Notes under the pieces: generated by a model
Told to the model about the DNA's origin: nothing
What the model saw: only the letters and a program-made list of their open reading frames with translations
The model's database searches: none
Source: Escherichia coli
Lineage (GTDB): Bacteria > Pseudomonadota > Gammaproteobacteria > Enterobacterales > Enterobacteriaceae
DNA length: 64,000 nucleotides
NCBI RefSeq assembly: GCF_002854065.1
Contig: NZ_CP024147.1
Reading direction: 5' to 3' (one strand)
Position numbers and translations under genes: made by a program
In this document: positions 41,993 to 43,528 of the stretch, piece by piece
How the letters are laid out: every line of letters begins with the position of its first letter
How positions within the stretch are numbered: the first letter of the stretch is position 1

Positions 41993-43528
41993 ATGATGAA
42001 AATGCGTTGGTTGAGTGCTGCAGTAATGTTAACCCTGTATACATCTTCAAGCTGGGCTTTCAGTATTGATGATGTCGCAAAGCAAGCTCAATCCTTAGCC
42101 GGGAAAGGCTATGAGGCGCCCAAAAGCAACTTGCCCTCCGTTTTCCGCGATATGAAATACGCGGACTATCAGCAGATCCAGTTTAATCATGACAAAGCGT
42201 ACTGGAACAATCTGAAGACCCCATTCAAACTCGAGTTCTACCATCAGGGTATGTACTTCGATACCCCGGTCAAAATAAATGAAGTGACTGCCACCGCAGT
42301 CAAACGAATCAAATACAGCCCGGATTATTTCACTTTCGGCGATGTTCAGCATGACAAAGACACGGTAAAAGACCTTGGTTTTGCCGGTTTTAAAGTGCTT
42401 TACCCGATCAACAGCAAAGATAAAAACGATGAAATCGTCAGCATGCTCGGGGCCAGCTATTTCCGCGTGATTGGTGCAGGTCAGGTTTATGGCCTTTCTG
42501 CCCGCGGTCTGGCAATTGATACCGCCTTGCCATCGGGTGAAGAATTTCCACGCTTCAAAGAGTTCTGGATCGAGCGTCCAAAACCAACTGATAAACGTTT
42601 AACCATTTATGCATTGCTTGACTCGCCGCGCGCGACAGGTGCTTACAAATTCGTAGTTATGCCAGGGCGTGACACGGTTGTGGATGTGCAGTCGAAAATC
42701 TATCTGCGCGATAAAGTCGGCAAACTGGGGGTTGCACCGTTAACCAGTATGTTCCTGTTTGGGCCGAACCAACCGTCGCCTGCAAATAACTATCGTCCGG
42801 AGTTGCACGACTCTAACGGTCTCTCTATCCATGCCGGTAATGGCGAATGGATCTGGCGTCCGTTGAATAACCCGAAACATTTAGCGGTCAGCAGCTTCTC
42901 CATGGAAAACCCGCTAGGCTTTGGTCTGTTGCAGCGCGGTCGTGATTTCTCCCGCTTTGAAGATCTCGATGATCGTTACGATCTTCGTCCAAGCGCATGG
43001 GTGACTCCGAAAGGGGAGTGGGGTAAAGGCAGCGTTGAGCTGGTGGAAATTCCAACCAACGATGAAACTAACGATAACATCGTCGCTTACTGGACGCCGG
43101 ATCAGCTGCCGGAGCCGGGTAAAGAGATGAACTTTAAATACACCATCACCTTCAGCCGTGATGAAGACAAACTGCATGCGCCAGATAACGCATGGGTGCA
43201 ACAAACGCGTCGTTCAACGGGGGATGTGAAGCAGTCGAACCTGATTCGCCAGCCTGACGGTACTATCGCCTTTGTGGTCGATTTTACCGGCGCAGAGATG
43301 AAAAAACTGCCAGAAGATACCCCGGTCACAGCGCAAACCAGCATTGGTGATAATGGTGAGATAGTGGAAAGCACGGTGCGCTATAACCCGGTTACCAAAG
43401 GCTGGCGTCTGGTGATGCGTGTGAAAGTGAAAGATGCCAAGAAAACCACTGAAATGCGCGCTGCGCTGGTGAATGCCGATCAGACGTTGAGTGAAACCTG
43501 GAGCTACCAGTTACCTGCCAATGAATAA
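41993..43528 (+). CDS. opgG: OpgG (MdoG) periplasmic glucan biosynthesis protein (511 aa)
   Basis: Starts [22 protein letters not shown]. Confidence 0.95.

Follow-up and report, generated by a model that had tools for sequence, protein, structure and literature searches.

The sequence and profiling data for two gene junctions of an Escherichia coli chromosome suggest that the 3' end of opgG doubles as the ribosome-binding region of opgH and that the principal start of clsC is a pair of AUG codons inside ymdB. We consider this joint explanation to be fairly probable. Both junctions lie within a window of 64,000 nt (contig NZ_CP024147.1, assembly GCF_002854065.1) and, in the sequences compared, neither can be put down to chance. 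The opgG–opgH overlap is real, ancient, ordinary and already annotated. At the second junction, clsC probably starts inside ymdB, at neither of the positions proposed in the initial annotation.

The opgG (mdoG) gene occupies positions 41993..43528 of the + strand and encodes a protein of 511 aa ending in ...YQLPANE*, with a TAA stop at 43526-43528; this assignment is based on annotation, translation and an INRI-seq peak at the annotated start. The opgH (mdoH) gene (43521..46064, + strand, 847 aa) is annotated and matches NCBIfam NF003955 with 1662 bits. The two genes had been described as overlapping by 8 nt, with the opgH ATG within the last codons of opgG, and this is exact in the sequence: the overlap is ATGAATAA (43521..43528, + strand), in which the opgH ATG (43521-43523) precedes the opgG TAA. 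Its description as an ordinary operon feature is equally apt, since overlaps of the −8 class are the third most common class (PMC10666635). The junction geometry is retained in 40/40 Enterobacterales loci and the sequence is identical in 39/40. Locus L021 was considered as an exception to the overlap and was ruled out, since an in-frame ATG is kept within ATGAGTAA.

Conservation extends beyond the overlap itself. A near-invariant block of 36 nt, GAAACCUGGAGCUAYCAGYURCCUGCCAAUGAAUAA (43493..43528, + strand), comprises the last 11 opgG codons and the stop. Across the 40 loci, synonymous entropy in the last 16 opgG codons (496-511) is 0.48, compared with 1.10 gene-wide, and is the minimum for the gene; nucleotide-level conservation reaches 28 nt upstream of the opgH AUG. 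The block contains GGAG (43500..43503, + strand), which is the sole SD-like element preceding opgH and lies 17 nt from the ATG, a non-canonical spacing (anti-SD duplex of −5.6 kcal/mol, spacer 16-17). GGAG is invariant in 40/40 loci, with ACC (39/40) and AGC (38/40) as flanking codons. On this pattern of conservation, the 36-nt block is best regarded as a putative opgH initiation region embedded in the 3' end of opgG. No conserved RNA structure was detected at the opgH start with RNAalifold (34 sequences, −3.6 kcal/mol, no compensatory pairs), and a structural RNA element there was ruled out, as single-sequence folds gave a z-score of about +0.5 and no conserved pairs. An Rfam E-value search of positions 36000-47500 returned no match to known RNA elements at either junction.

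Use of ATG 43521 as the opgH start, as initially annotated, is confirmed by two data sets. [quoted passage not shown] The INRI-seq fragment carried just 30 nt of upstream sequence and involved no translation of opgG. Translational coupling from opgG to opgH, which the initial annotation took to be implied, is plausible from the sequence: the stop–start distance of −8 falls within the same-strand window of −8 to +6 that is taken as indicative of termination–reinitiation (PMC10666635). Coupling is permitted, not proven, because the opgH start also initiates alone in vitro, and dependence on opgG translation is therefore not absolute. In the mechanism that we propose, the last ~36 nt of opgG, frozen across Enterobacterales, would double as the opgH ribosome-binding region. 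Ribosomes ending opgG would probably reinitiate at the opgH AUG, 5 nt upstream of the opgG stop, and the site would additionally recruit free ribosomes, as seen in vitro.

It is possible, although we are inclined to doubt it, that opgH is translated independently of opgG, the overlap being a matter of compaction and the 36-nt block a self-sufficient ribosome-binding site with no termination–reinitiation. The INRI-seq signal obtained in all five replicates without opgG translation, stronger than that of opgG, would be accounted for in this way, as would the unstructured start region and the strong nucleotide conservation over the 28 nt upstream of the AUG. Yet the sole SD-like element lies 17 nt from the AUG, and the stop–start geometry does not vary among the 40 loci, even though moving the stop would carry little cost. 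Furthermore, overlaps of the −8 class are in general associated with coupling, and coupling and independent initiation are not exclusive mechanisms.

At the second junction, ymdB (38478..39011, + strand) encodes a 177 aa O-acetyl-ADP-ribose deacetylase with a TGA stop at 39009-39011, as given by both the ORF list and RefSeq. The protein matches NCBIfam NF001660 over its full length (376 bits), and the gene has a strong SD, UAAGGAGG, with an INRI-seq peak of about 150-320. The initial annotation offered two clsC starts overlapping the 3' end of ymdB, an ATG at 39004 and a TTG at 39010, and held that the choice between them affects the length of ClsC (476 versus 473 aa). The ATG (39004..39006, + strand; −9 relative to the K-12 TTG) is indeed in frame and gives 476 aa with an 8-nt ymdB overlap, ATGAATGA, but it is an improbable start. 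The TTG had been misplaced: the codon at 39010 is GAT, and the TTG used by K-12 and UniProt is at 39013..39015 (+ strand, 473 aa), 1 nt past the ymdB stop, from which it is separated by base 39012, so that there is no overlap. The principle that start choice changes the annotated length is sound, as is the figure of 473 aa, but the pair of alternatives was wrongly named. The real conflict is between 473 aa (K-12/UniProt, TTG) and 493 aa (RefSeq/PGAP, ATG 38953).

Two further sets of in-frame starts had been missed. The sequence ATGATG (38953..38958, + strand), formed by the ymdB codons TAT-GAT-GAA (Tyr159-Asp160-Glu161), provides starts at −60 and −57 relative to the K-12 TTG, corresponding to proteins of 493 and 492 aa and to overlaps of 59 and 56 nt. 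A TTG at 38944..38946 (+ strand; −69, 496 aa), preceded at 4-5 nt by a weak AGGU, is a minor candidate. The RefSeq/PGAP clsC coding sequence (38953..40434, + strand, 493 aa) begins at the first ATG of the pair and shares 59 nt with ymdB, read in the +1 frame. This start is used in all five non-K-12 E. coli genomes checked, whereas the curated K-12 record uses the TTG. The 493 aa protein is the dominant form at NCBI; PGAP calls the long form, as do most database entries, and the annotated orthologues of Salmonella and numerous other genera measure 491-498 aa. An exact 476 aa ClsC has no entry in a collection of 15 billion protein sequences. The ClsC encoded here is 99% identical to that of K-12, its homologues carry Pfam PLDc_2/PLDc domains, and its two HKD domains and orthology identify it as a PLD-superfamily cardiolipin synthase. 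No ClsC-specific NCBIfam model that might explain the PGAP start choice was found above cut-off. In the AlphaFold model, a two-lobed alpha/beta core is preceded by an N-terminal extension with a pLDDT of about 30-38, the first helix beginning at residue 23; the ~20 extra residues are thus predicted to form a disordered tail before the PLD core.

To compare the candidate starts across genera, we numbered them from the K-12 TTG site (position 0). In Salmonella, the nearest outgroup with identical ymdB stop geometry, and in 12 other genera (Cronobacter, Atlantibacter, Lelliottia, Leclercia, Enterobacter, Pseudescherichia, Kosakonia, Superficieibacter, Siccibacter, Cedecea, Buttiauxella and LSJC7), the codon at position 0 is not a start, being AAA in Salmonella. 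In-frame clsC starts in these genera are found only about 54-75 nt upstream, within ymdB, and in every case include an ATG at −57 to −66. Yokenella and Phytobacter have lost the ymdB overlap, yet their clsC start is still at −60/−63; in Pantoea and Erwinia the start is at −36 to −45 with a proper SD. Position 0 is TTG or TTA in Escherichia (TTA in E. albertii) and ATG in Citrobacter, where five species share the same stop-plus-1-nt geometry. C. werkmanii has lost the upstream clsC start altogether, and a start at position 0 is therefore viable. The −9 ATG (39004) occurs in each of the six Escherichia lineages sampled and is confined to that genus, so that neither junction codon (−9 ATG, position 0) is conserved as a start among the relatives that keep the junction. 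Within Escherichia, both upstream ATGs and the open frame are retained in six/six lineages and in each of the E. coli variants examined, which for the ATG pair could reflect recent inheritance. The TTG at 38944 is less conserved than the internal ATG, because it is missing in five of the lineages compared (Lelliottia, Buttiauxella, LSJC7, Yokenella and Phytobacter). In the E. coli population, 4,923/5,423 genomes match the junction at 99% identity or more, and none of the four junction variants inspected disrupts a candidate start or the frame, a comparison that discriminates no start. YmdB–ClsC fusion proteins (651-653 aa), all of them from Logan assemblies of public sequencing runs, were considered as a possible programmed frameshift; this was ruled out, as the switch position differs between entries. 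Overall, the comparative data favour the long form of ClsC, and the AUG pair at 38953/38956 is the ancestral start of clsC and most likely also the principal one in E. coli.

Synonymous-codon resampling of the YmdB tail gave a probability of 0.08-0.54 per genus that the frame stays open and the ATG is kept. Over 15 genera these probabilities multiply to 10^-10.8 (10^-9.0 if Escherichia and Citrobacter are left out), on the assumption that synonymous sites are independent between genera; an open frame with a start inside ymdB is thus kept beyond chance. In ymdB, Tyr159 is encoded by TAT in 13/13 cases, whereas Tyr167 is TAC in 11 and TAT in 9; Leu171 is CTT or CTC in 19/20, and synonymous entropy is lowest at codons 146-162. 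The overall drop in synonymous variation across the overlap zone of ymdB was not significant (P = 0.12). By the resampling test, selection maintains the internal ATGs and the open clsC frame within ymdB. The constraint on the ymdB tail is limited to the ATG, avoidance of stops and the stretch immediately upstream, in keeping with an extension that is disordered and poorly conserved.

Initiation data for clsC come mainly from two assays. In tetracycline ribosome profiling (TetRP) of K-12, values of 0/30.1/16.1 were recorded at the ATG at −57, compared with 0/0/5.7 at the TTG, and there was no call at the −9 ATG. The −57 peak was seen in 2/3 samples. In the original study ymdC was classed as 'not conclusive', since ymdB is strongly expressed and ribosomes elongating along it also occupy this site. 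INRI-seq gave 0/0/0/0/0 at the TTG, with the mRNA abundant (316 RPM) and in an assay without ymdB translation. It showed no peak at the −9 ATG either, though the same table gives −9 sites for other genes. The construct had 30 nt of upstream sequence, and thus included the SD, the −9 ATG and the TTG without the ATGs at −57/−60; roughly 30% of genuine starts escape this method. The in vivo Ribo-RET value for clsC is 0, which is uninformative given its weak expression, and no ClsC start data were found in TRAINSPOTTER, the text of the Ribo-RET paper or Salmonella riboproteogenomics.

The candidate starts also differ in their surroundings. An SD-like hexamer, AAGGAG (38998..39003, + strand), within the ymdB codons Gln-Gly-Asp, directly abuts ATG 39004 (spacer 0) and lies about 8-9 nt from TTG 39013, an arrangement that is good on paper (anti-SD duplex of −8.5 kcal/mol). 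Upstream of it, CUCCUU (38985..38990, + strand) is its perfect complement and is predicted to form a 6-bp hairpin with a 7-nt loop, present in both MFE and centroid folds, with an overall z-score that is not significant. This hairpin is predicted to mask the SD. The complementarity is present in Escherichia and missing in Citrobacter and others. The internal ATGs (38953/38956) have essentially no SD (−3.8 kcal/mol at 13-16 nt); they are in a U-rich stretch followed by AAG-AAA codons, in a region of heavy ymdB ribosome traffic. Inhibitory structure around them was considered and found unsupported, with a weak hairpin only (z −0.2). No sigma-70-like match that might represent an internal clsC promoter was detected on the + strand within ymdB.

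According to our model, clsC translation would initiate at the AUG pair 56-59 nt inside ymdB, in the +1 frame, to give a ClsC of 492/493 aa. Since the pair is too far from the ymdB stop for termination–reinitiation, ribosomes would load internally on the ymdB–clsC mRNA. TTG 39013 and ATG 39004, located at the ymdB stop, would be at most secondary, coupling-dependent starts, with their SD predicted to be masked by CUCCUU and both being apparently silent in isolation.

The curated K-12 model, in which clsC starts at TTG 39013 by AAGGAG-driven, coupled initiation and the upstream frame is an evolutionary relic, appears unlikely. According to this model, ymdB ribosomes would melt the CUCCUU/AAGGAG hairpin and terminate beside the TTG. 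The SD-masking hairpin would then explain the silence in INRI-seq when ymdB is not translated, and the same mechanism would account for the boost to ClsC by ymdB in cis. The TTG is the start used by K-12 and UniProt and has a favourable SD (8-nt spacer); moreover, the homologous codon is ATG in five Citrobacter species, and C. werkmanii has no other start available. However, TTG is a weak start codon, the position is TTA in E. albertii and AAA in Salmonella, the TetRP signal is larger at −57 (0/30/16) than at the TTG (0/0/5.7), and neither the upstream ATG pair nor the open frame has been lost in any of the six Escherichia lineages. Initiation at ATG 39004, by reinitiation after the ymdB UGA in the manner of opgGH, to give 476 aa and the 8-nt overlap, is highly improbable. 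This in-frame ATG is 5 nt upstream of the ymdB stop, in the −8 class, and AUG is far better than UUG for a reinitiating ribosome. It is also kept in E. coli, the E69 and SCPM lineages, E. fergusonii and E. albertii, even where the TTG is lost. Against this, the codon is absent outside Escherichia, its SD leaves no spacer, neither INRI-seq nor TetRP registers it, and the exact protein form is missing from the 15-billion-sequence collection. We therefore retain the AUG pair within ymdB as the preferred start.

Amplification of ClsC by ymdB was posed as an open question in PMC8027125. An internal clsC start could explain the higher levels of ClsC obtained from clones containing ymdB. We tentatively suggest that the dependence of ClsC on ymdB for full activity or expression, an observation of long standing, may be a cis translational effect, the native start and ribosome-loading region being in the last ~60-90 nt of ymdB, but we regard this as somewhat less than probable. 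If true, clsC-only clones based on the K-12 annotation, or ymdB deletions, would remove the native clsC start. Mutants deleted for ymdB would also be ClsC-deficient, so that phenotypes assigned to YmdB would be confounded. The Keio design leaves no more than the final six codons of a deleted gene; a Keio-type ymdB deletion would remove the internal ATGs, and such mutants may therefore also be clsC hypomorphs. The start also matters for reference annotations, which conflict between 473 aa (K-12, EcoCyc-style records and UniProt) and 493 aa (RefSeq/PGAP). The opgGH overlap has little importance beyond being a clean, deeply conserved case of an initiation region embedded in the upstream gene.

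Compared with known systems, the opgG–opgH junction has the same geometry as −8 class overlaps (ATGNNTGA/TAA; Huber et al. 2019, PMC10666635) and likewise joins same-strand, functionally linked genes, both being involved in osmoregulated periplasmic glucan synthesis. It differs in that the opgH start is autonomous in vitro and in that its SD-like element is at 17 nt, not 5-9 nt. The junction of ATG 39004 with ymdB has the same −8 form, but is probably not the main clsC start. The K-12/UniProt entry CLSC_ECOLI (NP_415564.2, 473 aa, TTG) represents the same gene and catalytic core, and its start is homologous to the Citrobacter ATG. However, it lacks 19-20 residues of the form favoured by comparison, and its start is unconserved within Escherichia and silent in INRI-seq. 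The PGAP ClsC (e.g. WP_122999006.1, 493 aa) and the TetRP candidate 'ymdC ATG −57' (Nakahigashi et al. 2016) both start at the ATG pair preferred here, PGAP taking the first ATG (−60) and TetRP the second (−57), and both codons are candidate starts. In the literature searched, neither had been linked to the effect of YmdB. Unlike long overlaps with internal starts, clsC showed no inhibitory structure at its ATGs for ymdB translation to open (z −0.2). It nevertheless resembles the coat–lysis overlap of MS2 (−50 nt; PMC12548453), where the start is also internal, out of frame and too far away for local reinitiation, and as in that system initiation at clsC must compete with ribosomes elongating on the upstream gene.

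The ymdB–clsC and opgG–opgH overlaps are real but ordinary features, both already publicly annotated. The 7.7 kb region is matched in 5,425 of 5,426 complete E. coli genomes, two of them at 100% identity, and window 24473–50000 is collinear with the annotated record NZ_CP182139.1, so that its annotation is directly transferable. The RefSeq gene set here is ymdA, ymdB, clsC, mdoC (opgC, opposite strand), mdoG (opgG), mdoH (opgH) and yceK. The ymdB stop is TGA 39009–39011, and the clsC frame offers TTG 38944, ATG 38953, ATG 38956, ATG 39004 and TTG 39013 as candidate starts. The initial annotation had clsC starting within the ymdB 3′ end, at ATG 39004 or ‘TTG 39010’. 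An overlap of 8 nt does follow from ATG 39004, the only start to give it, whereas the TTG lies one base past the ymdB stop and was placed three nucleotides off, 39010–39012 being GAT and the TTG actually at 39013. The resulting lengths of 476 and 473 aa are arithmetically correct, but the actual annotation conflict is 473 versus 493 aa; the clsC half of that finding is thus inaccurate in detail. K-12 is annotated from the TTG (473 aa); in each of the other five genomes inspected, PGAP starts clsC at ATG 38953, for 493 aa and a 59-nt overlap. Among E. coli clusters in a collection of 15 billion proteins, the 493-aa form is dominant and the 473-aa form corresponds to CLSC_ECOLI; exact 476-aa and 492-aa forms were absent from that collection.

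We retrieved 80 loci that encode ClsC relatives, each with 10-kb flanks, placed YmdB, ClsC, OpgC, OpgG and OpgH by tblastn, and aligned the loci at the counterpart of the K-12 TTG (position 0), six more taxa being added via their proteins. Position 0 reads TTG in E. coli, E. fergusonii and two other Escherichia lineages; E. albertii has TTA there, which is not a start, and five Citrobacter species have ATG. The codon is also not a start in Salmonella (AAA), Cronobacter, Atlantibacter, Lelliottia, Leclercia, Enterobacter, Pseudescherichia, Kosakonia, Superficieibacter, Siccibacter, Cedecea, Buttiauxella and LSJC7, and in these 13 genera in-frame clsC starts occur only in the upstream ymdB region. 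The ATG at −9 (39004) is confined to Escherichia. Every ymdB-linked genus has an ATG within ymdB, at −57 to −66, formed by Cys-Tyr-Asp-Glu codons; the sole exception is Citrobacter werkmanii (locus L007, 9920–10005), where GAC replaces GAT and the internal ATG is gone, the upstream clsC frame carries three stops, a 4-nt ATGA overlap lies at position 0, and the YmdB C-terminus is altered by a 2-nt indel. This natural experiment shows that ClsC can do without its N-terminal extension. In Yokenella and Phytobacter ymdB ends 180–190 nt upstream and clsC still starts ~60 nt before the core, and in Pantoea and Erwinia, whose locus lacks ymdB, clsC starts 12–15 codons ahead of the core and has a normal Shine–Dalgarno. 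The 473-aa form is thus the shortest in the family.

Resampling, in which the YmdB C-terminal peptide was fixed and codons were redrawn from local codon usage, gave probabilities of 0.08–0.13 in nine genera and 0.32–0.54 in six for a stop-free +1 frame with the ATG kept. Both features are present in 15 of 15 genera, a product of 10^−10.8 (10^−9.0 without Escherichia and Citrobacter) that presumes independence of synonymous sites between genera, which is reasonable at 65–80% protein identity though not exact. Individual codons show the same pattern: ymdB Tyr159 is TAT in 13 of 13 (TAC would abolish the ATG) and Tyr167 is TAC in 11 and TAT in nine, while Leu171, preceding Thr-ACC, is CTT or CTC in 19 of 20 (CTG-ACC would make TGA). 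Synonymous entropy in ymdB reaches its minimum over codons 146–162, at the ATG and just upstream. Constraint over the whole overlap zone was not significant (P = 0.12), consistent with a variable extension predicted to be disordered (AlphaFold pLDDT about 30–38 for residues 1–18, first helix residue 23, pTM 0.74). The ancestral enterobacterial clsC start is inside ymdB.

Escherichia keeps this internal start intact, with ribosome-profiling signal there. Tetracycline-inhibited profiling lists ‘ymdC ATG −57’, which is window position 38956, as a candidate new start (PMC4909307, Table S2 row 99), with signals of 0/30.1/16.1 against 0/0/5.7 at the annotated TTG; its authors were undecided, the site being inside a strongly expressed upstream gene (PMC4909307). 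The predicted anti-SD duplex of the internal ATGs 38953/38956 is −3.8 kcal/mol (spacer 13–16 nt), that of TTG 39013 is −8.5 kcal/mol (8 nt), and that of the ymdB ATG is −11.9 kcal/mol (3 nt). ATG 39004 shares the AAGGAG element of the TTG at a spacer of 0 nt. In Escherichia a perfect complement, CUCCUU (38985–38990), lies upstream of AAGGAG; the two are predicted to pair, which would leave both junction starts reliant on ribosomes translating ymdB. In INRI-seq, synthetic mRNAs with 30 nt upstream and 51 codons are translated by purified components in the presence of retapamulin (PMC9825163); the clsC construct includes the CUCCUU complement, AAGGAG, the −9 ATG and the TTG. The TTG scored 0 in all five replicates though the construct was abundant (316 RPM), and the only other clsC site was a sub-threshold CTG at +69 (PMC9825163). 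These data argue against autonomous use of either junction start, the internal start (−57/−60) lying outside the construct. We regard the TTG as an unlikely main start, and one probably dependent on coupling, and the −9 ATG as still more doubtful in that role; mixed use is possible. The ATG pair 38953/38956 is probably the main E. coli start, a well-supported correction and a useful outcome of this analysis.

According to secondary accounts, ymdB co-expression is needed for full ClsC activity; by its title, a 2024 paper holds that the ymdB product is not required for ClsC substrate specificity. A clsC start codon and loading region within ymdB would explain the YmdB effect in cis, a link that we did not find in the open-access papers searched.

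Other variation was seen in the family. YmdB–ClsC fusions (proteins P0031, P0032, P0040 and P0041; 651–653 aa, Macro plus PLD), from E. coli-like and Salmonella-like public-run assemblies (Logan), were rejected as a programmed event because the frame-switch site in ymdB varies; they resemble sporadic indels or assembly errors. Distant relatives from Beta- and Gammaproteobacteria (loci L042–L082) carry an N-terminal lipoprotein-type signal, made up of a hydrophobic stretch and an L-x-G-C lipobox, and after it a conserved LPSLExR motif (for example L052 9848–9992, L081 9869–9995, L061 4404–4545). All Enterobacterales ClsC lack it and have a short hydrophilic N-terminal tail, which implies that the enzyme's location or topology changed within the family.

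Elsewhere in the window, IS1 occurs four times (17159–17931, 24473–25242, 34940–35711 and 50888–51657). The third copy breaks csgD, the curli/biofilm master regulator, so the strain is probably curli-deficient; pgaA and pgaC are also IS1-truncated in a closely related annotated genome. Only 7 nt separate the stop codons of the convergent genes clsC and opgC (40434–40442), and convergent yceK and msyB adjoin with zero spacer between their coding regions (46464–46465), leaving little or no space for separate terminators. Just 3′ of opgH, the ES036/CssrF sRNA model matches above its Rfam gathering score, adjoined in the opgH–yceK spacer by sub-threshold naRNA4/CssrE and AgrB matches; this cluster, covered by 46096–46138 (−) and 46142–46221 (+), probably consists of REP-type repeats.

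The 8-nt opgG–opgH overlap proposed initially was borne out by reading the sequence: opgG ends …CCT GCC AAT GAA TAA and opgH begins ATG AAT AAG ACA… at 43521, sharing ATGAATAA (43521–43528). The lengths of OpgH (847 aa from ATG 43521) and OpgG (511 aa) agree with K-12 and PGAP annotation. Two in-frame opgG ATGs lie in 41975–41995: 41975 (517 aa) has GGGGGA at 14 nt, and the annotated 41993 (511 aa), without any Shine–Dalgarno (anti-SD duplex +0.4 kcal/mol), is backed by a weak INRI-seq peak (6–12). The gene pair was found in 40 loci, from Escherichia through Erwinia, Pantoea, Mixta and Acerihabitans, and the octamer is identical in 39. The remaining locus, L021, was rejected as an exception, as its ATGAGTAA has the ATG in frame with the tblastn-reported start; the geometry is thus kept in 40 of 40. 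Within opgG, synonymous entropy is lowest in the window of its last 16 codons (0.48 bits versus 1.10 gene-wide), where GAA-ACC-TGG-AGC, CCT and AAT are essentially fixed on codon-by-codon comparison. No conserved secondary structure was found at this constrained 3′ end, and an Rfam search matched no family at the junction. GGAG at 43500–43503, 17 nt from the AUG, is the sole Shine–Dalgarno-like element for opgH.

TRAINSPOTTER N-terminomics lists an opgH N-terminal peptide at the annotated start (PMC13245402), and INRI-seq peaks there at 24–33 in each of five replicates (PMC9825163, Table S2), which makes the start experimentally sound and, with it, the overlap. The peak from an isolated fragment also shows that the embedded initiation region functions without opgG translation, so translational coupling, which had been taken as implied, is suggested by geometry only. 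Competing coupling mechanisms have been reviewed (PMC12548453). Overlaps of the −8 class rank third in frequency and fall within the −8 to +6 window associated with termination–reinitiation (PMC10666635); opgG–opgH is a textbook −8 overlap whose embedded initiation region is unusually well conserved.
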